From IMG/VR virus record IMGVR_UViG_3300037504_000682, positions 1 to 64,000 of that record: DNA of 64,000 nt; one strand, 5' to 3'. Source of the stretch: a virus. This document shows positions 13,570 to 37,432 of the stretch, one piece after another. A model generated the notes under the pieces. It did not search any database. It was not told the DNA's origin and saw only the letters and a program-made list of their open reading frames with translations. Each line of letters begins with the position of its first letter. Positions within the stretch are counted from its first letter, which is position 1. The translations under genes were made by a program, and so were the position numbers.

Positions 13570-14781
13570 GTGAGAATTTACGCTCATTCAACGGCACCGT
13601 GGAGCCCATCGAGCTATAGCGTTCTGGTGAGCCGGACTCTGCCGAATATGGTCAGGGACGGTCACAAGGTCACGCTTGGCACCTGGTACGGCCTGGCTGG
13701 TCAACCGCTCCCCTGGACGATTGCCGGGAGAGAGGGCCAGCCGGCCAAATCTGTCACGGTGCTGCCGGCCAAAAATGGCTCAAACTATGCCATTGACACA
13801 ATGGTTGCCAGCTACAAGCACTTCAAGGCTGAGGTACTCATCACCATCTCTGACGTGTGGGTGTTCCCTAAGGACCAGACCAGAATGACAAACTTCTGCC
13901 CCTGGCTCCCCATCGACCACGATCCGCCACCCAAGCCCGTACTTGAGGCCCTGGAGCCAGCCATTTACCCGATGGTGTACAGCCGCTGGGGGGTTGAGGT
14001 GCTTAAAGAGGCTGGCGTGAAGGCTCACTATGTCCCCTGTAGCGCCCCGGCCAAGCAGTTTACGCCGGGCGACAAGGCCAAGGCCCGCGTCGACCTGGGC
14101 TTTGCTGATGATGCTGATTTTGTGGTGTCAATCGTGGCGGCCAACAAAGACCCTCACGACCGCAAGGGATTCGCCGAGGGGCTTTTGGGCTTTGCCCGCT
14201 TCTTGGAGAGCCGCCCCAATACCTACCTGTATCTCCATACCGATTGGAGCGGGGCCATTGACATCCCGGCTCTGGTTGAGAACCTGGACATCAAGGACCA
14301 GGTGATTAAGCCGGACCCCTACGCCTACGCCCTGGGGCTGCTTGATGCGGAGTATATGACCAGCGTCTACCGGGCCAGCGACGTTCTACTAAATTCTTGC
14401 AAGTCCGAGGGGTTTGGGCTGCCGTTGGTGGAGGCCCAGATGTGCGGAACGCCGATTATAGCCACCGACTTTGCCACCACTGACGAGCTGATGTTTGCCG
14501 GCTGGCGATTGCAAGGTCAACCGGATTGGTCAAACGGCTTAAATAGCTGGCGGATGCGGGTGAACGTTGACGACGTGGTGAGCGCCTTAGAAGAGGCGTA
14601 TCACGAAAAGGACAATCGGAAACTGGCCAAAAAGGCCACCAACGGAGCTCGGCGGTATGACAATGACACGATATTCAATCAGCACTGGCGACCGGCCCTA
14701 AAAGATATTGAAGAACTGGTAAGCGATGAAAAAAACGTCTTTAGCCTTACCGAAAATCTCGATATGGTCTCTGTTCCGTGA
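13570..14781 (+). CDS. GT-B (GT4-like) glycosyltransferase
   Basis: RKG and EGFGLPLVEAQMCGTP (EX7E). Confidence 0.92.
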   Translation: MRIYAHSTAPWSPSSYSVLVSRTLPNMVRDGHKVTLGTWYGLAGQPLPWTIAGREGQPAKSVTVLPAKNGSNYAIDTMVASYKHFKAEVLITISDVWVFPKDQTRMTNFCPWLPIDHDPPPKPVLEALEPAIYPMVYSRWGVEVLKEAGVKAHYVPCSAPAKQFTPGDKAKARVDLGFADDADFVVSIVAANKDPHDRKGFAEGLLGFARFLESRPNTYLYLHTDWSGAIDIPALVENLDIKDQVIKPDPYAYALGLLDAEYMTSVYRASDVLLNSCKSEGFGLPLVEAQMCGTPIIATDFATTDELMFAGWRLQGQPDWSNGLNSWRMRVNVDDVVSALEEAYHEKDNRKLAKKATNGARRYDNDTIFNQHWRPALKDIEELVSDEKNVFSLTENLDMVSVP

Positions 14782-15487
14782 CGACGCGGGCGACAACATA
14801 GCCCGATACCGAAAACAGGTGACTGGCCTGGATTATCCGCCTGAGCTATTGCGCTTCTATCTAGTCGAGGGGGATAGCCAGGATGATACGCTTTCTGAGA
14901 TCAAAGCTTGGGCGGTTGAAGATGAGCGCGTGACAGTAACGACCCACAATACCGGGCTGTCCCGGATGCGTCACACACCCCATCCCGAGCGAGTTGCCGG
15001 CCTGGCCTCCACCGGCAACGCCGCCCTGGACGCCTTGGCTGCTGACAACTGGGGTGATTATGCCCTGTTGATTGAAAGCGACCTGATCTACCAGCCCGAT
15101 GTCATTCTATCCCTGCTCACTAATCTGCCCCACCCTGATGCCGTAGTCTCCCCATACATTTGGATACCCGGCGATGGATCATATTTACAGTTTTATGACA
15201 TTTGGGCCTTTCGCACTGCGGCGGGCAAGATGTTTCGCCCCTACCAGCCGCTTTGGTATCAGGTGCATATGCCGACAGGACCGTTTGAGATAAATAGCGC
15301 CGGTTCGATGGTGATGTTTCCCATTGCCCCTATTGTGGACGGAGTGCGCTACCCACTGGAGACGGCCATTATGGGCATTTGTGACCAGTACCGGGAGAAA
15401 GGCTATAAAATCTACGCTGACCCGCAAACAAACATTTTTCACCCAAAGGTTCTTAATCCTTATCCTTTGGTTGATAACCAAACGTAA
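14726..15487 (+). CDS. GT-A fold glycosyltransferase (Anp1/GT2-like)
   Basis: VEGDSQDDT, LIESDL, FYDIWAFR. Confidence 0.75.
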   Translation: MKKTSLALPKISIWSLFRDDAGDNIARYRKQVTGLDYPPELLRFYLVEGDSQDDTLSEIKAWAVEDERVTVTTHNTGLSRMRHTPHPERVAGLASTGNAALDALAADNWGDYALLIESDLIYQPDVILSLLTNLPHPDAVVSPYIWIPGDGSYLQFYDIWAFRTAAGKMFRPYQPLWYQVHMPTGPFEINSAGSMVMFPIAPIVDGVRYPLETAIMGICDQYREKGYKIYADPQTNIFHPKVLNPYPLVDNQT

Positions 15488-15515
15488 CAAAACGAAAGCA
15501 AACGAAAGGCGTACA

Positions 15516-16163
15516 ATGAACGTTGTCATAATCGGCACAGGGGGGATGGCCAAAGAGATTTACGGAATGCTGCTTGATTGTGGCCATACCGTGACGGGCT
15601 TCATTGCCGCTCTGGACAGCTACCCCAATCTGTTTATGGACCTACCAGTCCTGGGCGATGATAGCTGGTTTGTCTCTGAGCGGGCGCTTGACGTGGTGAT
15701 AGCCAACGGCTCCCCGGCGGTTCGGCGCAAAATCAGAGATTATTACTCGACCAGCGCCCACCGCTGGCCCAGGTTTATCCATCCTGGCTCGCACGTTTTT
15801 GAGCAGGTGATTGTTAATGGCGGCTCCACCGTTATGCCCGGCGGGGTAATCCAGCCGGACACGCGAATAGGGCGTTATGTTCACGTCAATATGGGCGTGA
15901 CTATCGGCCACGACGTTTCAATCGGGGACTACTCCGTTATTAACCACAACGCTGGGATTAGCGGTAATGTCAAGGTTGGCGAGGGGGTATTGATTGGGGC
16001 CGGGGCCACGATCATCGAGAACAACACCATCGGAGCCGGAGCCACCATCGGAGCCGGGGCGGTAGTGACAAAAGATGTACCGCCCGGTGAGACCTGGGCG
16101 GGAGTGCCGGCAAGGCCGCTGGTTAAAGCCACGAACGGAGCCAAGCGTGAAGAAATTATTTAA
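15516..16163 (+). CDS. NeuD/PglD-type sugar acetyltransferase
   Basis: IIGTGGMAKE, IGHDVSIG, hexapeptide repeats, GVPAR. Confidence 0.92.
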   Translation: MNVVIIGTGGMAKEIYGMLLDCGHTVTGFIAALDSYPNLFMDLPVLGDDSWFVSERALDVVIANGSPAVRRKIRDYYSTSAHRWPRFIHPGSHVFEQVIVNGGSTVMPGGVIQPDTRIGRYVHVNMGVTIGHDVSIGDYSVINHNAGISGNVKVGEGVLIGAGATIIENNTIGAGATIGAGAVVTKDVPPGETWAGVPARPLVKATNGAKREEII

Positions 16164-27616: not shown

Positions 27617-27889
27617 CTATTCGACCTCCACCAGCCAATCGAACTCGGACCAGACCTCGTGTAAAATGAGGCCAACCCGCTCGGCCTCATCGCTGTCGGT
27701 ATCGCCGTCGACCGAGTAGCGGCCGTGGCCGGTTGTGATCTCGATCTCGGCGTCGGGGTAATGTTTCCGTAGCTCGGCCTCTAGCATTTGGTCGAATTTG
27801 GCCTCGCTGGCCTCGGTGTCGTAGCCGTCCGCGCCCTCGGGGCCGTACATCGCGTCCTCTGAATTATCGTATTCGATTTTTATGTGCAT
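27617..27889 (-). CDS. Small acidic protein
   Basis: SD GAGGAG before MHIKIEYD. Confidence 0.6.
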   Translation of the reverse strand: MHIKIEYDNSEDAMYGPEGADGYDTEASEAKFDQMLEAELRKHYPDAEIEITTGHGRYSVDGDTDSDEAERVGLILHEVWSEFDWLVEVE

Positions 27890-28011
27890 TCTGTTTTTCT
27901 CCTCGACTAATTCAATCAATTTGTAAATCAGCGCCTCGGTCGGCTGCCGCTGGCCGGACTCAATCATCGAAACATACGTTTTGACAATGCCTAGCTGGCC
28001 GGCTGGTTGGT

Positions 28012-29028: not shown

Positions 29029-29161
29029 TGCGACACCCCCACGACAAAGCCACGACACCGGCCCGACCACCTACGACGGCGCTACGACAGCCTCCCCCGG
29101 CCGCCCCCGCCCCGGCGTAGCCCTGTCGTGGCTATGTCGTAGCATTGTCGTGGCCCCGTCG
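29029..29161. repeat. Two opposed arrays of ~11-bp-phased YACGACA repeats
   Basis: CGAC at 29031/42/53/64/74/85; GTCG at 29125/36/47/58. Confidence 0.85.
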
Positions 29162-30406
29162 GGCCTCATCAGCCCGCTTTAGCAGCTCCTTGATCTCCTG
29201 GAGCTGCCGGCCGTTAGGCTTGTCGGTGTCATAAAACTCCCGGGCGATGGCCGTCACCGATTCCCCGGCGGCGTGCATCGCCTGGGCCTGGAGTACCCGG
29301 GCGTCCGGCAGCTCCAGGACCACCTTCCCAGCCGGCTGGGCGTAGCCCGGGAACGGCCCCGGCAGGGCATACTCGACCGGCCGGGCCTTGCTGCCATCCG
29401 GATTGACCTTGCTGTTGGGATGGATGAAGGCCCGGTGAGGCTCGCCCTGGCCGCCGATCAGCTCGACCAGGATGGCGCTCTTCCGGATAGCCGCGCTGAT
29501 CCCCAGGGTGTCGACATTCGGCGAGTGGGTGATCACCGTCAAATGGATGTTGACCTTCCGGCTCTCCGTCAGAAGCGTCTCGAAATACTCGCCGGCCCGT
29601 TCCACCTTCCGCTGGATGGAGGTCCACTCCTCGATAAAGACGCTCACCCGGGCGTGCTGGCCGTAGCCCATCAGCCCTTCAGCCACGTCGGTATAGCGGC
29701 TGGTCATCATCCAGACCAGCGACTGGAGAGCGTTGGCGATGGCCTCATAATCCCGGCCGGCCCCGATCACGTCGATCCCCAGCACCTTACTGGGGGAATG
29801 AGGGTCAATCATCACGATCTGGCTATGATCCGCCCGGCTGGCGATAAGATGCTTGACCAGGGTCGACTTGCCGGCATCCGAGCCGCCGGTGATGATCAGG
29901 CGCTGAGCCGGGGTCAGCTTGGGCAGGATGGGCGCAAGCGACGGCCCCTCCTCCGGCGGGGCCAGCTGGGCCACCTGCTGGGCCTGCCGCGCCGCCCGGC
30001 CGTGGGCGACGTTGAACAGCTCATAGCGCCCCACCTCGTCCCGGTCGAAGGCCGAGGGGTGACCGTTGATCCGGCCAGGGATCAGATGCAGAGGGATGGT
30101 GATAGTGGTGCCATTGGCCTGAGTGAGATAGACCTGCTGGCCAGGGTCGGCCACGGTCACCAGGACACCCGCCTCCAGCCGGGCCTTATCGGCCCGGGCC
30201 CGGGCCTCGTCGCTCTCGTAGCGCTTTCGGTTGACCAGGTGCCGGGCCATCAGGGCCAGGCCGACCACAAACACCAGGCCGGCCAGGGCCATCGAGCCGG
30301 CCACGACCAGCAGGATCAGGCCGACCTCGTACCGGTAGACGCCGGCCAGGTAGATGGTCAGGGCCGTGCCGCCGATTGCGATCAGGACCTTCCAGATAGT
30401 ATTCAT
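29132..30406 (-). CDS. Membrane-anchored FtsK/HerA (TraB-like) ATPase with C-terminal HTH-like segment
   Basis: 2 N-terminal TMs; GGSDAGKS; IDPH; VFIEEW; SRKVNIHLTVITH. Confidence 0.8.
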   Translation of the reverse strand: MNTIWKVLIAIGGTALTIYLAGVYRYEVGLILLVVAGSMALAGLVFVVGLALMARHLVNRKRYESDEARARADKARLEAGVLVTVADPGQQVYLTQANGTTITIPLHLIPGRINGHPSAFDRDEVGRYELFNVAHGRAARQAQQVAQLAPPEEGPSLAPILPKLTPAQRLIITGGSDAGKSTLVKHLIASRADHSQIVMIDPHSPSKVLGIDVIGAGRDYEAIANALQSLVWMMTSRYTDVAEGLMGYGQHARVSVFIEEWTSIQRKVERAGEYFETLLTESRKVNIHLTVITHSPNVDTLGISAAIRKSAILVELIGGQGEPHRAFIHPNSKVNPDGSKARPVEYALPGPFPGYAQPAGKVVLELPDARVLQAQAMHAAGESVTAIAREFYDTDKPNGRQLQEIKELLKRADEARRGHDNATT

Positions 30407-30678
30407 ACTCCCATCACCCCCCATCTTATGGAGTTCACTCCAACGGCCAGCACCTTGCCGGCCGTGTCCAGCCGCCTGGACCACCTGTCCATCCATCTGG
30501 CCAACCTGAACCGGACACGGTTGACGTTTACCTGAACATTCCAGATGAACATCAGGATGGCCGTCAGGCTGAACAGGTCCAACACGGCCACCTGGACGCC
30601 ATCCTGTTCATCTCGCCTGGTCACGGTCAGGGTCAGATGGACGGCCACCTGGCTGGATCGTACAATCGCCCGGCTCAT
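30403..30678 (-). CDS. Small hydrophobic protein
   Basis: Stop overlaps the ATPase start; hydrophobic stretch. Confidence 0.45.
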   Translation of the reverse strand: MSRAIVRSSQVAVHLTLTVTRRDEQDGVQVAVLDLFSLTAILMFIWNVQVNVNRVRFRLARWMDRWSRRLDTAGKVLAVGVNSIRWGVMGV

Positions 30679-30682
30679 ATGG

Positions 30683-31423
30683 TCACCCCCTGACCTTCCC
30701 ATTGAGTGCCCGTAGGTCACGCCGGATGGTCGCCCGGCTCACGTCCAGGGCATCGGCCATCTCGGTCTGGTTCATTCCCTGTTCATGTAGCACCATAACC
30801 TGTTCACGTCTCTGTTCAATGGCCAGGTCTCTGGCCTCGTTGGCCTGGTCTAGTCCGGTCATTTGGGTGGCCATTTGGTGATGTTCACCCACTTTGGCCT
30901 CTTTGACCTGGTCACTGACCCGGGCCAGGGCCTCACGGCGCTGACCGATCTGGTCATTCAGGTGGTCAATCTCTGTCCGGGCCTGGTCCACCCGGGCGGT
31001 CATCTCGGCCAGGGTGGTCACCAGCCCTGACCGTTCGATCCGAACCTTGACCAGTTCCCTGAGCACCTCGGAGGCCACGAGCAGGGTCACCGGCGGCAGG
31101 GCGGCCACGAACCAGGCCACCGAATTGGGCGGGGCGTGCAGCACGTTGCCGGTGATGGTGATCACCCCGTAGGCCAGGATCAGGCCGATGAGCCATCGCC
31201 GCCGGACGCCGATCAACTGGAAGGCGAGCAGGACGGCCGTGAACACGACCAGGGCCACGTCCACAATGACCGGCCATATCCAGGCCAGATGAGCCGGCTT
31301 GCCATTGGTTATAGCCAGATCGTTCAAGGCCTCGAAGCTGAGCACAAATGAGCCCAGGGCGATCAGTGCAACGGCCACCACCACGGCCAAAGAAACGGAA
31401 TCGATCAGCTTGTTGTTCATCAT
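30683..31423 (-). CDS. DUF2637-like (Spd-type) 4-TM plus coiled-coil plus HTH protein
   Basis: LSFEALNDLA, AWIWPVIVD, GNVLHA, AALPPVTLL; MADALDVSRATIRRD. Confidence 0.8.
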   Translation of the reverse strand: MMNNKLIDSVSLAVVVAVALIALGSFVLSFEALNDLAITNGKPAHLAWIWPVIVDVALVVFTAVLLAFQLIGVRRRWLIGLILAYGVITITGNVLHAPPNSVAWFVAALPPVTLLVASEVLRELVKVRIERSGLVTTLAEMTARVDQARTEIDHLNDQIGQRREALARVSDQVKEAKVGEHHQMATQMTGLDQANEARDLAIEQRREQVMVLHEQGMNQTEMADALDVSRATIRRDLRALNGKVRG

Positions 31424-31584
31424 CTGCTCGCTTTCTCCAAACGCACGTTTAAAAATAAAAAGCGCCCTCTACTTTGCGCAGGGGACGCTCAACCAATACA
31501 ATAAGCACAGGTCTCCCACCGCCCCTGTCGGTCGGGAGGCTCAGGCCGGGGTTGCTGGTGTTGGCGCACCAGTCCCGGCCGCTT

Positions 31585-31911
31585 TTATTTCTCACATTTT
31601 AACACAGCTCCCCGCCGGCTGCAATCGGCAATCTGGCGGCGATACTCATCCGGCCCCTGACCGTTGAGCGTTCGCCGGGCGATCACCTCGGCCTGGTCGA
31701 GGTCGACCTTGTGCCAGATGGCTACGGCCAGCAGGCAGCGCGGCTCGACCGACCGGCGGCGGATGTCCCGGGGAGGCGCGTTCATTTCGTCGCAGGTCGA
31801 GGCCGGCAGCGGGCAGCTCAGGCACACGTCGGTGCCGGGGGTCCGGTAGTACAGGTTGGGCCCCGGGCCGGCCTTATCCTCATCCTGAAACAGCTTGATC
31901 GACTTCCCCAC
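31585..31911 (-). CDS. Hypothetical Cys-containing protein
   Basis: CLSCPLP motif. Confidence 0.45.
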   Translation of the reverse strand: MGKSIKLFQDEDKAGPGPNLYYRTPGTDVCLSCPLPASTCDEMNAPPRDIRRRSVEPRCLLAVAIWHKVDLDQAEVIARRTLNGQGPDEYRRQIADCSRRGAVLKCEK

Positions 31912-31918
31912 GCCGCTA

Positions 31919-32740
31919 CTACTCCCGTGTCTCCCCGGCTGGATACTCCTCCCGCCAGGGCGACCACTCCAAATTGCCCTTGAAAAATACCGGCACCTCC
32001 CACCCGTCCAGCACGGCCAGCAGCCGCTCGACGTGCCCCGGCTCCGGCTGGTAGTAGGTCCGGCCGCTGCTGGCCGCCCCGATCACCGCCCACCGCAGGG
32101 CATCGGGGTACTGCTCGACGATCCCCGACACGTCCCAGCTCAGCGGCTCAAAGCTCATCCAGGTGACGAGGTCATCCGGCAGCTCGCTCAAAACGGCCAG
32201 CGCCTTGTGCAGCAGTCGCTCCTGGTGGTGGCGACCCAGCCGGCCGCCGTGCATCCAATCCGGCGGGGAGCTGGCCCCCGGCCAGAAATTGGCCGGAAAA
32301 TCAAACCGCTCCATCCGGATCGGGTTTTTGGTCAGGCTCAGGAACGTATGCCAGCTGGCCTCCCGGCAGACATCGAGAACCTGCTCGACCTGGCCGGCCG
32401 GCACCCAATGGCCGAAGAGGTCCGACATTGAGTCCAGGAAAATGCGCGATGGCTGGGTGACCTTAAGCGGCTCCTCCAGCCGTTCAGGGTGCCAGTAGTG
32501 GTGCTCGAAGCCTTCCGGGTAGGCGGCCCTGGCCACCCCTTCGGCCACGGCCTCGGCATAGCAGATGGCCACCGTGCCGTCGGGCATCTCCCACCGGCAG
32601 CGGTGTTTGCAGCCGCCGGGCACGTTCCAGGTGTAGCCCCGGCTCTCGTGGCCGTCCGGGTGGATGGTTTTGCACCACTCGATTCCGCCGGCGACCTTCT
32701 GGAGGCCGTCTACCATCACCAGTTTGCCTTGTTTGTTCAT
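31919..32740 (-). CDS. DUF5131 (phage Gp37/Gp68, radical-SAM-like)
   Basis: WN..GC...C...CYAE, RIFLDSMSDLF, LTKNP, SFEPL, VFFK. Confidence 0.88.
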   Translation of the reverse strand: MNKQGKLVMVDGLQKVAGGIEWCKTIHPDGHESRGYTWNVPGGCKHRCRWEMPDGTVAICYAEAVAEGVARAAYPEGFEHHYWHPERLEEPLKVTQPSRIFLDSMSDLFGHWVPAGQVEQVLDVCREASWHTFLSLTKNPIRMERFDFPANFWPGASSPPDWMHGGRLGRHHQERLLHKALAVLSELPDDLVTWMSFEPLSWDVSGIVEQYPDALRWAVIGAASSGRTYYQPEPGHVERLLAVLDGWEVPVFFKGNLEWSPWREEYPAGETRE

Positions 32741-33450
32741 ACCGTCGCCTCCTGAAATAATGGCAGCTGCAACCGCCAGCCAACCGCGTGCAGCCGCGCT
32801 CGATCTTTGAATAAATCAGGCGGGCTGGCCAGATACCGCCTGACGTTTCTGGCGCTCATTCTCATTAGCGTATGGCTGTGGAATCGATTCCTTACCTCCC
32901 GCCAGGTATTTCGCCTGGCGCTCCAGAAAGAGCCGTAGTCCTGGGCCTTCTGGAAGATAGCCGAGCAGTCGAGGCTAACGATCCTGGACCCGGCATATTT
33001 ACGCATCAGGATCACATATTGATCAGGATGACCGCCCAGCAGGTGCAGCTTCCGGCCGGCGACCTCTCCAGACTCCGGTAAAAATCCGGCGTAGCTGGTG
33101 GGCACCGAGATAGCCACGATCACTCCGGCCGGAACGTCGGCCGCCGCCCCAGGGAATTTGGGGCAGACCATCGGCCAGCTGCCGGCCCCCAGCACGTCCC
33201 AGACCTGGGCCAACATCTCCCTCTTTTGGGCCGGCGATTCGTAATCGGCCACCATGGCCAGGTCAGGCTGCCAGAAGCGGATCACGGCCAGGTGCTCACT
33301 CCAGTCGTAATCCCGCCATTTGATGTCCACGAAGTAGGGCCGCCCGTAGGCCGTGGCGTCGCTCCGAAAGCCGTACAGCCATCCCTCGGCCTGGAGCAGG
33401 CGAGGGGCGTCCGGGTCGCCACCCCGGCAGCCGATCAGCTTCACGCTCAT
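32737..33450 (-). CDS. TGT-fold-like protein (DUF6610-like)
   Basis: FVDIKW, SVPTSY, LHLLGGHP, SLDCS. Confidence 0.6.
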   Translation of the reverse strand: MSVKLIGCRGGDPDAPRLLQAEGWLYGFRSDATAYGRPYFVDIKWRDYDWSEHLAVIRFWQPDLAMVADYESPAQKREMLAQVWDVLGAGSWPMVCPKFPGAAADVPAGVIVAISVPTSYAGFLPESGEVAGRKLHLLGGHPDQYVILMRKYAGSRIVSLDCSAIFQKAQDYGSFWSARRNTWREVRNRFHSHTLMRMSARNVRRYLASPPDLFKDRARLHAVGWRLQLPLFQEATV

Positions 33451-34370
33451 ACCGCCGCCACCTCCATCTGCCGCCGGTGGGCCCGCATCAGCATATTCTG
33501 GTTGTGAGCCGCCCGCCCCATATTATTCTCATTCGATCCATACGTCCGCGTATCCACCCCCTGCCGGCGCAGCACCTCGCAGGCCCGGCAGTCGCAGCGA
33601 GGCGCGGTGATCGGTTCAAGCAGCCGGTCCGGCCGGCCCCGTTCGGTCCGGGCCGCCTTATGCCGGACCAGCTCCCCATCCTGCTCCATAAAATAGATCC
33701 CGGCCGTGAAGGCTTGCTTGAAGTGACTGGAGCCGTCGAAGCTATTAATCCCCAACCGGCTCCACTGCCCCGCATAATCCGGCGAGGAGAGGCCCAGGAC
33801 GTGCAGATAGTGCCAGGGCAGCTCAGCCCGGATGGCCTCCACCGCCGCGATGTTATCCGCCTTGGCGCTGGCCCGGCCGGCCAGGCCACCCAGGGCGATG
33901 GCTTCATAACCCAGGTCGGCCAGCCAACGGGCGTTCTCTACCTTCTCGGCCAGGTCGACCCCGTGGGCCGTGACCACCGGCTCGAAGTCCGTCCCCGCCA
34001 CCAGCTCCAGGAACTCAGCAGCCGACCGGCGGTTGAATCGCCGGCGCTCCTCCAGGTTGCCGTAGCGACCGATTAACATATGGTCCGGAGCGATGAGGTA
34101 ATCGCCGGGCCGGGCCCGGGCCAGGTACTGCCGGAAGGCCCAGCCGGCCGTGACCCGTTCGCCGCGCAGCTGCGGCACCGCTTCGGCCCGGTAGCTCCAG
34201 GCCCCGCAGTCGAAGATCATTCGCTGGCGAGGCGGCAGGTCCTCCCGGGCGTAGGCCAGGGAGGTGAGCCAGCCGGCCGGTTGCTCGTCCAGGAACTCCC
34301 AGTAGGGCCGGGGCCGGCCGTCGATCTTGATATAGTCCCGGTTGCCGATCACGCCGAAGTAGCTACTCAT
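33447..34370 (-). CDS. tRNA-guanine transglycosylase/DpdA-like protein
   Basis: FDCGAWS, APDH, AHG, ALGGL, LHVLG, SFDGSS, CDCRAC...HN zinc site. Confidence 0.85.
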   Translation of the reverse strand: MSSYFGVIGNRDYIKIDGRPRPYWEFLDEQPAGWLTSLAYAREDLPPRQRMIFDCGAWSYRAEAVPQLRGERVTAGWAFRQYLARARPGDYLIAPDHMLIGRYGNLEERRRFNRRSAAEFLELVAGTDFEPVVTAHGVDLAEKVENARWLADLGYEAIALGGLAGRASAKADNIAAVEAIRAELPWHYLHVLGLSSPDYAGQWSRLGINSFDGSSHFKQAFTAGIYFMEQDGELVRHKAARTERGRPDRLLEPITAPRCDCRACEVLRRQGVDTRTYGSNENNMGRAAHNQNMLMRAHRRQMEVAAV

Positions 34371-34556
34371 CGGCCGGCTCCTGGGGAAGGGCTCGCTGTG
34401 CAGCCTCCAGCTCTTCGTCAAGGATGAAGACAGCCTCGTCCAGGCTGCGACCCGGGCCGGGGCCATACTTGCCGATATAAGTCTTGAGTTGCGCCCTGAT
34501 TTGGTGAAGGTCTCTAATCGCCTGGGGACTGTTCTGGAACCTGAATGGTCGGGCGC

Positions 34557-34823
34557 TCATTCTGACCACCCCTGCCGCTTATACTCCGCCACACTCTCCC
34601 GGGTCCGCTGCCAGACCTCATCCGTCTCCGGCAGATCGAACACGCACAGATCCGCCCGCTCGGCTCCGTTGAGCCGGCAGTACCGGGGCCGTGCATTCAG
34701 CTGCGGGCAGCTGCCGGCCCCCTCAATGTCGTCGGCCCGGGCATATTTGCAGTATATTCGCTCGTCGAGCCAGTCGACCGGCCTTACCTGATCCGTTCGC
34801 AACTGAATTACAAGTCCTTCCAT
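34557..34823 (-). CDS. Hypothetical protein
   Basis: SD AAGGAG. Confidence 0.5.
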   Translation of the reverse strand: MEGLVIQLRTDQVRPVDWLDERIYCKYARADDIEGAGSCPQLNARPRYCRLNGAERADLCVFDLPETDEVWQRTRESVAEYKRQGWSE

Positions 34824-34912
34824 AATGCGCTCCTTTTAGTATAATAGGGTCGGCCGGGAGATAGTGCGCTCGCCTGGCCGAGGCCCACCGGGTTACGGCC
34901 GGTGGGCCGGTT

Positions 34913-37432
34913 TTATTTTGCCGTCTTGCCATTCATCGCCGGCTGAGCCACCCCTGCTGATTTGGCTTCCGTAGTCGCCAGCCAATCAAACAGGGTCGGG
35001 GCCAGGGCCTGCTGCTCAATTGTCTCGCAGTACCTGACGCCATTCTCGAAGTAGGTGTCGCTCAACTCGATCCCATAGCCGCGCCGGCCGAGTTTGACAG
35101 CCAGATACGGCACAGTAAAGAGGCCGGCGAACGGGTCCAGGATCAGATCATCTTCATTGCTATAGAGCCGGATGGCCCGCTCCACGATGTCAAACGGCAG
35201 GGGACACAGGTGGTTTTCCTGCTGCTTGCGCCGCTGCTCGCTGTTGAGGCAGCGCATAAAAACGATGTCGTCCCAGACCCAATCGCTGGTGCTGACCGGT
35301 GGCTCGTAGAAAAAATGAGCCGGCAGGTTGCCCGCCGCCTCTTTGGTTTCCAGCCGGGCCACGTGGGCCTCGTAGTCATAGAGCTCGGCCGGCTGCAGCA
35401 TGCCGTTTCCATTTGACCGCCAAAAGCCATGAGCTGCGATTTGCCACCGGGCCCGGCTGTAGTCGGCCTTGTCTTTAGTCACCGGCTCATCGGCGTATTG
35501 ATCAGAATTGTCGGTCGGCGGCTTTCGGAAAAGAAGCAGGTACTCCGGCAGGCCGGAACCCATCTTGGTGGCATCCTTGGTCATCTCGGTCCATCCCAGC
35601 CGGTATGTTGACGCGTTCTCCCGGACCACGTCGGTAACGATGGTCCGCCGGCCTTCGTACATCCAGCCGTGCTCCCGGAAAGCCATCACGCACTCATCAG
35701 AGAATGGCGCAATTTCGGTGAAGCCGTGGGGCGTCTGGTGGCCGTAGAGAACCCGGTCTTTGACGTGAATGGCCGCCACCCGGCCGGGCTTTGTCACCCG
35801 CAGGAGCTGGGGGATGAGAAAATCCATCTGCTCCCAAAACTCGACATCGGTCGAGTTGTGACCAAAGTCCTCGTACTGGATGGTATATTCGTAGTGATTA
35901 CCAAACGGGATCGAGGTCATAATCATATCGACCGAATTGTCCTCCAGCCGAGGCATCTCCAAAACACAGTCGTTATTGACCGCCGTGAATCGTTTGCCTC
36001 CCGCCTCCCGCCGGTCGATGCCGATCTGGCGCTTCAGGTCGCTGGTTAAGGCCGCGTGGGAAAGTCCATATTTTCTCACGATCCGCTGCATCTTCTCTAC
36101 CTGCCGCTCGTACTGGCTCCACTTGCGTTGAAGGGCCTTAACCACCTGATCTTCGCTCTCGGCGTAGATGATATGGATGTTAACCTCTTTTCCCTGCTGG
36201 AAGCGGTATAGCCGGTGAACGGCCTGGATGAAATCCTGAAACTTGTAATCGACACCCAGAAAGACGGCGTCCGAGCAGTAGTGCTGGAAGTTACAGCCGG
36301 ATCCGGCGATCTCCGGCTTGGTGGCCAGGATCGGGAACTGACCCCGGCTAAAACCCAGGATGCGCTCCTCTCGGAGCTCCAGGGCCTGGGAGCCGTAGAC
36401 GCTGATCGCGTCCGGGACGGCCCGCTCGATGGCCCGCCGCTCATCCTCCAGGTGGTGCCATAGGAGCCAGTGGTGGCCGGGATTGGCCTCGATGATCTCG
36501 ACCATCTTGCCTACCCGGGCGGCCATCGTGGCCCGCTTTTCGGCAACCGCCTCCCGGACCCCACCGGCCGCATCCAGAAACAGCCGGTGCTGGCCCCGGT
36601 TGTCGGTTTGCTCCCAGGCCCGTTGGTGGTCAACCGGGAGGCGGTGCCAGTGAACCTGAAGTGGCGGCAACTCGTAGCCCTCGTCTGAGTAGCCCAGGTC
36701 GCTGGGCTTGTAGACAAAGAGCGCCCAGCTGGCCACCCACAGCCAGAACTTCTTTTCCTGGTTGGGGATCAGGGTCAAATTGCCGGCCTTGTTCACGTCC
36801 CGCTGGAAAAAGCGGGTCAGGGCCTGGCCGTTGTCCATAATGTCCAGGAAGTTGGCGTAGTAAATAAGCTCCCGGTATCGGTTGGGGTCGGGAGTGGCTG
36901 TGCAGACCCACCGGTACGGGACGCCGGCAAAAACTTCGTTGAAGATGTGGTAGGTTTTGCTGTCCAAGCTCCGGAGGACGCTGCCCTCATCCAGGCTGAC
37001 TCCGGCGATATCATGCAGCCGGGGGTCGATGTCGCCGTCTCTAACCCGCTCGTAGTTGGTGATCAGATACGGCGTGTCTGCCGCCTCGATCTCGGCGTCA
37101 GTCCGGACGTACTGGAACCGGACGCCCATAGCGGGCCCGTCCTCTTCGGAAAACTGATGCTTTACCCCAAGGGGGCAAACGATAAGGAACTTACCGCCGC
37201 GGCGGCGGGCCAGAACCTGGCGGCCCAGCTCGATCTGGATTCTGGTTTTGCCCAGGCCAAAGCTCATTGCCACCAGAGCTCTCCCCTGGCGAGCAGACCA
37301 GACCACGGCGTCTCGCTGGTGAGGCTTTAGCAAGGCGGGGTCGAGATCGTTCGGGTCGAGATGGAAGCCGGCCCGGACGGCGATGTCGGCTTTTTGTTGC
37401 AGGAATTTGAGATAGTTACCGTTGTTGTTCAT
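34913..37432 (-). CDS. SF2 helicase / N4-N6 DNA methyltransferase fusion
   Basis: GLGKT, LDEGS, TAT, RLYRFQQ; TSIPF, HLCPL, DPFAG. Confidence 0.9.
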   Translation of the reverse strand: MNNNGNYLKFLQQKADIAVRAGFHLDPNDLDPALLKPHQRDAVVWSARQGRALVAMSFGLGKTRIQIELGRQVLARRRGGKFLIVCPLGVKHQFSEEDGPAMGVRFQYVRTDAEIEAADTPYLITNYERVRDGDIDPRLHDIAGVSLDEGSVLRSLDSKTYHIFNEVFAGVPYRWVCTATPDPNRYRELIYYANFLDIMDNGQALTRFFQRDVNKAGNLTLIPNQEKKFWLWVASWALFVYKPSDLGYSDEGYELPPLQVHWHRLPVDHQRAWEQTDNRGQHRLFLDAAGGVREAVAEKRATMAARVGKMVEIIEANPGHHWLLWHHLEDERRAIERAVPDAISVYGSQALELREERILGFSRGQFPILATKPEIAGSGCNFQHYCSDAVFLGVDYKFQDFIQAVHRLYRFQQGKEVNIHIIYAESEDQVVKALQRKWSQYERQVEKMQRIVRKYGLSHAALTSDLKRQIGIDRREAGGKRFTAVNNDCVLEMPRLEDNSVDMIMTSIPFGNHYEYTIQYEDFGHNSTDVEFWEQMDFLIPQLLRVTKPGRVAAIHVKDRVLYGHQTPHGFTEIAPFSDECVMAFREHGWMYEGRRTIVTDVVRENASTYRLGWTEMTKDATKMGSGLPEYLLLFRKPPTDNSDQYADEPVTKDKADYSRARWQIAAHGFWRSNGNGMLQPAELYDYEAHVARLETKEAAGNLPAHFFYEPPVSTSDWVWDDIVFMRCLNSEQRRKQQENHLCPLPFDIVERAIRLYSNEDDLILDPFAGLFTVPYLAVKLGRRGYGIELSDTYFENGVRYCETIEQQALAPTLFDWLATTEAKSAGVAQPAMNGKTAK

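Follow-up and report, generated by a model that had tools for sequence, protein, structure and literature searches.

What does a phage do with two transglycosylase-like proteins encoded in tandem and followed by a protein of the DUF5131 family? The question is raised by three genes on the minus strand, at 31919-34370, of a 64,000-nucleotide stretch of viral DNA (the window). This window corresponds to positions 1 to 64,000 of the 99,175-bp IMG/VR virus record IMGVR_UViG_3300037504_000682, which is 96% complete and comes from a tidal-flat metagenome. In the order of transcription, the three genes encode protein A (307 aa), of the DpdA family of DNA-guanine transglycosylases; protein B (237 aa), a minimal barrel resembling tRNA-guanine transglycosylases (TGTs) and belonging to DUF6610, or DpdA4; and protein C (273 aa), of DUF5131 (Gp37/Gp68), a family of putative iron-sulphur (Fe-S) proteins resembling radical S-adenosylmethionine (radical-SAM) enzymes. 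7-Deazaguanine modifications of DNA are a major defence of phages against restriction enzymes, and DpdA is treated as their signature. With modest confidence, we favour the reading that the genes form an anti-restriction operon in which two transglycosylases draw on the preQ0 (7-cyano-7-deazaguanine) or preQ1 (7-aminomethyl-7-deazaguanine) of the host, and in which the DUF5131 protein is co-transcribed but acts as a largely autonomous Fe-S enzyme.

Protein A has the active site of DpdA

The three minus-strand open reading frames (ORFs) extend over 33447-34466, 32737-33450 and 31919-32740, and the overlaps of 4 bp between A and B and between B and C, noted in a preliminary description of this DNA, are confirmed by these coordinates. 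Within the first ORF, the most likely start of A is the ATG at 34370, which gives a gene at 33447-34370, because all 23 of the 23 aligned homologues begin there and because another ORF, orf65, fills the upstream frame (34363-34560). A longer version starting at 34466 was considered and rejected on the same two grounds.

A had been described as a zinc-site protein similar to TGTs and DpdA, and both profile and fold comparisons agree with this. The match to the Pfam TGT model was weak (24.8 bits, under the cut-off); the NCBIfam and PADLOC models of DpdA matched A with E-values of 2e-22 and 2e-21, and a profile of the A family matched the sequence of the solved DpdA structure 7UI4, from Salmonella Montevideo, at 2e-23. 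The AlphaFold2 model of A, a triose-phosphate isomerase (TIM) barrel with a predicted local distance difference test score (pLDDT) of 94.9, retrieved 7UI4 as its top Foldseek match (E 4.6e-14, TMq 0.78), above the tRNA TGTs (about 1e-7). To map the active site, the A-family profile was aligned to 7UI4, and residue roles were taken from Gedara et al. (PMC10164549). The chain numbering of 7UI4 is offset by 20, since D115 in the motif GDCGAFTY is the native Asp95. In this alignment the general acid/base Asp95 of DpdA corresponds to D54 of A and the nucleophile Asp256 to D212; Asp130 and His181, which contact the base edge, correspond to D96 and H136; and Phe99 and Leu236, which sandwich the base, correspond to W58 and L192. 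All six of these residues are invariant in a 24-sequence alignment of the A family. The zinc site, CxCxxC...H (C259, C261, C264 and H289), is likewise invariant in that alignment and aligns with CECNIC...H of 7UI4. The DCG motif of A had been taken as a departure from a usual DSG; this does not hold, because DpdA itself has DCG (DCGAFTY in 7UI4), and the motif is invariant in the A family. Thus A shares with the bacterial enzyme the TIM-barrel TGT fold, the DCGA[FW] signature, the six active-site residues, the zinc site and, through its relatives, a link to DpdC. It differs in being about 100 residues shorter and phage-borne, in having 17% identity in the structural alignment, and in scoring below the equivalog cut-off for bacterial DpdA.

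Relatives of A are linked to DpdC

A search of 5.8 billion proteins returned 355 homologues of A with 50-66% identity, and many of those listed, with a length of about 440 aa, end in a DUF6884 domain, which is the domain of DpdC. In the bacterial Dpd system, DpdC turns preQ0 in DNA into 7-amido-7-deazaguanine (ADG; PMC10164549). Among 14 viral loci with relatives of A, DpdC is fused to the A relative in eight (L002, L004-L008, L010 and L014) and is encoded immediately downstream in two (L009, 6876-7355; L013, 6903-7295), or 10 of 14 in total; in one locus, L005, QueD directly follows the fusion. This linkage of its relatives to DpdC and QueD therefore ties A to preQ0/ADG modification of DNA, and we are highly confident in placing A among the DpdA-family DNA transglycosylases, in a subfamily whose usual partner is DpdC. 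DpdA-DpdC fusions of this form (TGT-like plus DUF6884, about 440 aa) occur frequently in contigs of viral and metagenomic origin, and no description of them was found in the 7-deazaguanine literature consulted for comparison. A tblastn search with A found one phage record only, which is unannotated, so A is not detectably BLAST-similar to the described phage DpdAs.

Protein B is a minimal TGT-like barrel of the DUF6610 family

The second gene (32737-33450) had been described as encoding a shorter TGT-like barrel. B matched the Pfam family DUF6610 (PF20314) with 88.1 bits (cut-off 27; 8e-25). The name DpdA4 was given to this family by Hutinet et al. (2023), who considered it restricted to archaeal viruses; the DNA of one of these, HVTV-1, carries preQ1, and DpdA4 is the sole transglycosylase candidate of that virus (PMC10516641). 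Roughly 165 homologues of B were counted, and by tblastn B is 26-27% identical to proteins of HVTV-1 and HCTV. Its AlphaFold2 model (pLDDT 95.3) is also a TIM barrel, and all of its top Foldseek matches were tRNA TGTs (8e-5). VIA-align ranked an archaeosine TGT first, with Z 15.2 over 229 aligned residues, and placed Cap10, bacterial TGT, DpdA and QTRT2 at Z 11.7-13.1 over 206-213 residues. Homology to the A family was apparent from a local, low-mact hhalign comparison of the two family profiles, which aligned over their full length with an E-value of 5.6e-5 and a probability of 66%. This comparison pairs D42 of B with D54 of A, and HLLGG...S-x-D161 of B with HVLGL...S-F-D212 of A. Across 35 sequences of the B family there is no variation at D42, D69, K98, H136, L138 and D161, and a zinc site is lacking. 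Judging from strand order, D69 would be the counterpart of D96 in A, and C96-P97-K98 would occupy the site of H136 of A. As modelled, B looks like a catalytically competent minimal transglycosylase, with a predicted recognition of the base edge unlike that of DpdA.

B resembles the DpdA4 of haloarchaeal viruses (gp69 of HVTV-1) in its Pfam family, its minimal TGT-like barrel and its lack of a zinc site. The haloarchaeal proteins, however, are linked to genes for preQ1 synthesis, including QueF (PMC10516641), whereas the record of the window gave no Que or QueF matches; B is moreover encoded on a high-GC phage contig and directly after a zinc-bearing DpdA. A scan of genome contigs with B matched one metagenome-assembled genome of Flavobacteriaceae only. 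Most of the remaining DUF6610 genes in the sample encode fusions with a GNAT acetyltransferase and have no A-type neighbour. These fusions occur in both domain orders (P0172, P0180, P0210, P0423, P0466, P0483 and many others) and hint at an acetylated base; some of them have additional zinc-ribbon N-termini. Among the best 150 representatives, no DUF6610 was fused to DUF5131 or to DpdA, GNAT fusions and zinc-ribbon extensions being the only kinds found.

DpdA and DUF6610 are combined in several lineages

A survey of gene neighbourhoods found the combination of DpdA and DUF6610 again in L001, a contig from a related phage, and in the mycobacteriophage Knocker. In both the window and L001, B follows A in the slot that is usual for DpdC; the L001 proteins are 59% and 67% identical to A and B, respectively, and a helix-turn-helix (HTH) gene lies between their genes. 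In Knocker, Rinkes and Funsized, gene 1 encodes a ParB-like domain fused to DUF6610; in the Knocker gene (L016, 1-1317), the ParB-like domain spans residues 5-153 and DUF6610 spans residues 227-416. The annotation of this gene reads merely 'ParB-like nuclease domain protein'. The fusion gene of Knocker stands next to FolE, a Rosebush-type DpdA, QueC, QueD and QueE. In Rosebush, a phage of the same cluster B in whose DNA dPreQ0 makes up 28% of G (PMC6884629), gp1 consists of the ParB part only and is separate from DpdA, with QueC, QueD, QueE and FolE again present. Knocker is therefore like the window in having DpdA and a DUF6610 domain in one gene cluster, and differs from it in the fusion of DUF6610 to the ParB-like domain, in a full preQ0 pathway, in a DpdA from a different subfamily, for which BLAST gave no significant match with A, and in the absence of DUF5131 from the cluster. 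DpdA plus DUF6610 is thus a recurring combination, found in at least three lineages and with differing types of DpdA.

Such a combination would also fit a heteromer of A and B comparable to the eukaryotic QTRT1/QTRT2, with A as the catalytic zinc subunit and B as a DNA-targeting or regulatory paralogue that replaces DpdB. A and B are translationally coupled, the two families keep company in three lineages, and QTRT2 is among the structural matches of B (Z 11.7). Furthermore, bacterial DpdA requires a ParB-like partner, and Knocker joins DUF6610 to the ParB-like domain, which in Rosebush is a separate protein preceding DpdA. Against this, the three candidate catalytic aspartates of B are all invariant, which is unexpected for a non-catalytic subunit; most DUF6610 genes have no A-like or Pfam-TGT gene nearby; and in HVTV-1 DUF6610 is itself the only candidate for the transglycosylase (PMC10516641). 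We consider a heteromer of this kind distinctly unlikely and retain two separate transglycosylases as the preferred reading.

Supply of the base and predicted activities

The earlier observation that the window lacks genes for precursor synthesis extends to the whole record, in which FolE, QueC, QueD and Radical_SAM/QueE gave no match, and nor did QueF, YhhQ or DpdC (DUF6884); the same search missed A by the TGT model, and divergent genes could therefore escape it. Phages of this kind have been described. A large group that encodes DpdA alone relies on precursors of the host, and one member, phage 7-11, has trace amounts of the deoxynucleoside of ADG, dADG (Hutinet 2019; PMC6884629). The window shares with this group a DpdA without genes for preQ0 synthesis, any modification having to draw on the host pool (PMC6884629), and differs from it in that DUF6610 and DUF5131 follow DpdA in the same operon. 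As there are no precursor genes, use of host preQ0 or preQ1 is the natural reading. The preliminary description had proposed a two-transglycosylase pathway that either uses host precursors or installs an unknown base. The first alternative is made plausible by the tandem TGT-superfamily proteins with their conserved aspartates and by the lack of precursor genes; the unknown base found no direct support.

Arguing from folds, residues, gene order and co-occurrence to the substrate, the base, the DNA target and the role of C, we propose the following scheme. A would act by double displacement as DpdA does, with D212 as the nucleophile and D54 as the general acid/base, removing guanine from phage DNA after replication and putting a 7-deazaguanine base in its place. 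With neither synthesis genes nor DpdC in the phage, this base would most likely be preQ0 drawn from the host. B would be a second, stripped-down transglycosylase of the DpdA4 type, with catalytic aspartates of its own and in the position usually taken by DpdC; most likely it would widen the protection, either by placing a 7-deazaguanine in different sequence contexts or by inserting a different derivative, for example preQ1. C would be a self-contained Fe-S/radical-SAM-like enzyme of a kind that many phages carry without either transglycosylase; although co-transcribed with A and B, it would probably not be essential to the pathway.

Several observations weigh against this scheme. The score of A against NF041059, the NCBIfam model of bacterial DpdA, is 79.5 bits, with an equivalog cut-off of 200, and by this measure A is classed as a member of the DpdA family and not as an equivalog of the bacterial protein. 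Generic TIM barrels align with B at Z 12-14.7, albeit over shorter spans, so that its TGT fold score is not clear of them and the fold alone is not decisive for B, which also has neither the zinc subdomain nor an equivalent of His181. The authors who described DpdA4 did not obtain activity for it in E. coli (PMC10516641). For the subfamily of A, for the DUF6610 proteins of bacterial phages and for DUF5131 alike, the functions are predictions. Bacterial DpdA requires the ParB-like ATPase DpdB as its partner (PMC10164549), and no ParB-like gene (ParB_N) was found in the record. Mycobacteriophage Orion, which has DpdA alone and a host without the pathway, carries no modification (PMC6884629). An attempt to assign a host, which the scheme presumes to supply preQ0 or preQ1, gave none, the large terminase subunit TerL being about 41% identical to terminases of Synechococcus and Bradyrhizobium phages; the contig is probably that of a bacterial phage. 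Lastly, C relatives and DUF6610 co-occur more often than in controls, as detailed below, which speaks against C being wholly unrelated. Compared with the bacterial Dpd system (dpdA-K), the record lacks the DpdB/ParB-like partner, DpdC and the dpdD-K restriction genes, and the SNF2-methylase gene next to the operon belongs to a separate unit.

Part of this evidence would also fit a phage whose DNA contains no 7-deazaguanine, either because the module is idle, as in Orion, or because it acts on another target (tRNA or DNA of the host or, as with the TGT-like Cap10, a protein) or with another base. The record gave no match to precursor genes, to a transporter or to DpdC, its host is unassigned, and Orion provides the precedent (PMC6884629); Cap10 turned up as a structural match for A as well as for B, and the histidine that reads the base edge has no counterpart in B. 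Yet the DpdA-type active site of A is complete and, like the zinc site, strongly conserved, in a family of hundreds of homologues that is tightly linked to DpdC and QueD, and the best match of A in both structure and profile is a DNA enzyme rather than a tRNA TGT or Cap10. An idle or redirected module therefore appears to us highly unlikely.

Protein C and its association with DUF6610

C (31919-32740) matched Pfam DUF5131 (PF07505) with 81.3 bits (cut-off 28.9; 1e-22), phrog_2045 at 5e-32 and the PADLOC models PDC-M30B/M41B. Its subfamily is large and mostly viral, with 1379 matches, many at about 60% identity. The insert in the Cys motif that the preliminary description had pointed out is real: C has C44-x3-C48-x11-C60-Y-A, and the motif G-C-x-H-x-C-x-W-x-M-x-[DN]-G-x-x-A-x-C-Y-A is invariant in the subfamily. 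Other DUF5131 proteins have Cx3Cx2C (vir524 and Enterocloster phages) or Cx6Cx2C (Sbash and Angelique), and the Cx3Cx11C spacing of the three invariant cysteines of C also differs from the Cx3Cx2C typical of radical-SAM enzymes. What C shares with the DUF5131/Gp37-Gp68 family at large is the three conserved cysteines ahead of C-Y-A and the proximity to DNA methyltransferases, which DUF5131 genes tend to adjoin, as in the window. A search with the C-family profile found nothing meaningful among solved structures, and the ESM Atlas gave DUF5131 clusters only. To our knowledge, no function is known for any DUF5131 member; spore photoproduct lyase, for its part, acts on DNA. RadicalSAM.org places DUF5131 in the radical-SAM superfamily, in megacluster 5-2, together with that lyase (PMC9477430).

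The preliminary description had C coupled to the two transglycosylases. Close relatives of C were surveyed in about 38 viral loci: DUF6610 lies within 6 kb in one and a relative of A in none; no neighbouring family is conserved around the C relatives in these loci, where C mostly stands alone. At the level of whole records an association is present. DUF6610 was found in 4 of 31 records with close C relatives, or 5 of 32 when the record of L060 is included, and in none of 46 control records, 38 with other types of DUF5131 and eight with relatives of A (Fisher one-sided p 0.0095). In four of these five records, 9-24 kb lie between the two genes. They are closer in two further contigs, L018 (0.5 kb) and the metagenomic L117 (2 kb), which share nothing else with the window and in both of which the C-type gene is upstream of the B-type gene. 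The 31 records contained no Pfam TGT match, in a search that also missed A in the record of the window, and QueD occurred in two that are near-identical. The association of the C subfamily with DUF6610 is thus real but loose, and it may reflect a shared phage lineage; the coupling of DUF5131 to A and B that had been proposed is weak.

The genome-level association, together with L018 and L117, therefore leaves room for a further modification step. In such a three-step pathway A and/or B would insert a base, and the DUF5131 protein would either modify it in DNA or make the base that B inserts, the product being an undescribed 7-deazaguanine derivative. The layout of the operon is in keeping with this: stop and start codons overlap by 4 bases at both A/B and B/C, and the flanking small ORFs overlap A or lie no more than 8 bases from C. 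So are the short distances between a Cx3Cx11C-type DUF5131 gene and DUF6610 in L018 and L117, two unrelated contigs with a gene order different from that of the window, the excess of DUF6610 over the controls, and the membership of DUF5131 in the superfamily and megacluster of spore photoproduct lyase (PMC9477430). In the loci L045 and L046 (938-2747 and 5860-6855), moreover, QueD, QueE and FolE lie 3-5 kb upstream of a relative of C. On the other hand, at least 26 of the 31 records with close C relatives have no DUF6610, none has a Pfam TGT, and QueD is confined to the two near-identical ones. C has no conserved neighbour, no relative of A has a C neighbour, and the distances of 9-24 kb in four of five records, like the possibility of common phage ancestry, detract from the co-occurrence. 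L001, the closest phage with both A and B, has no C-type gene at the pair, and its sole DUF5131 gene is of another type and about 12 kb away. On balance we regard a three-step pathway as rather unlikely, and continue to favour a C that is co-transcribed but largely autonomous. It is quite improbable, in our estimate, that DUF6610 and the Cx3Cx11C DUF5131 constitute a two-enzyme hypermodification route of their own, layered on the classical DpdA, in which DUF5131 makes or remodels the base that B installs and an undescribed replacement of guanine results. Two details of these loci may be added. A GIY-YIG gene lies between the Que genes and DUF5131 in L045 and L046, with a weak DpdA-like ORF at the edge of the locus (116-604); and the DUF5131 gene in the record of L001 (G001, 14655-15611) encodes a protein of the canonical type, with 293 bits to Pfam.

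Relation to known systems

The locus arranges a known anti-restriction system in a new way; it does not represent a new kind of system. Compared with the literature searched, the novelty lies in the mostly DpdC-fused DpdA subfamily of A, in the occurrence of DUF6610 beyond the viruses of archaea, in the tandem of DpdA and DUF6610, and in a DUF5131 subfamily that has the Cx3Cx11C spacing and is linked to DUF6610. The DpdA subfamily is abundant in metagenomes, where it is usually fused to DpdC, and the supposedly archaeal-virus-specific DpdA4 family is present also in a probably bacterial phage contig and in metagenomic contigs. DpdA-type and DpdA4-type enzymes have been combined repeatedly. Should both prove active, phages would be able to stack two transglycosylases, with consequences for how complete, and over how broad a range of sequences, protection can be without a precursor pathway of their own. 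For DUF5131, a very common phage protein, the locus is one of few contextual leads.

Operon boundaries and neighbouring genes

In the window, a plus-strand block of late structural genes, including those for the terminase, an SPP1-type portal and a MuF protein, is followed by early genes on the minus strand, and the A-B-C unit is one of the early operons of the phage. A terminator-like hairpin, GC-rich and with a T-run, is located at 34882-34908, between the operon and an SNF2-methylase gene, and is likely the boundary of the transcription unit. It is followed by a strong ribosome-binding site, AAAGGAG, ahead of the ATG of orf88 at 34823. orf88 (34557-34823, minus strand) is the first gene of the operon, and orf65 (65 aa; 34363-34560, minus strand) overlaps orf88 (ATGA) at one end and the start of A at the other; neither orf88 nor orf65 has a family match. 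The last gene, orf108 (108 aa; 31585-31911, minus strand), encodes a Cys-containing protein and starts 8 bases past the stop codon of C, so that all genes from orf88 through orf65, A, B and C to orf108 overlap or abut. Whether orf108 belongs to the module is uncertain. Its product has a short match to the C-terminal Cys motif of the 2Fe-2S protein FhuF (FhuF_C-like, 23 bits), and it could be a redox partner or unrelated. A scan of 31300-35100 for promoters found none.

Directly upstream of the operon, at 34913-37432 on the minus strand, is a gene for an 839-aa fusion of an SNF2-type helicase with an N6-N4 DNA methyltransferase. It was considered as a member of the module and rejected, because the hairpin and the new ribosome-binding site lie in between. 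This fusion is a second DNA-modification function adjoining the operon, and its DNA is about 67% identical to genes annotated 'DNA helicase/methylase' in Arthrobacter, Mycobacterium and Pseudomonas phages. Downstream, at 29132-31423 on the minus strand, are genes for a DUF2637 membrane/HTH protein and an FtsK/SpoIIIE-like ATPase, the latter without a match among 50,697 phage records. Farther away, a DinI-like small protein (24 bits, at the cut-off) is encoded at 27617-27967 on the minus strand, where the late region switches to the early one, and a group-1 glycosyltransferase gene lies at 13570-14781 on the plus strand, inside the block of structural genes.

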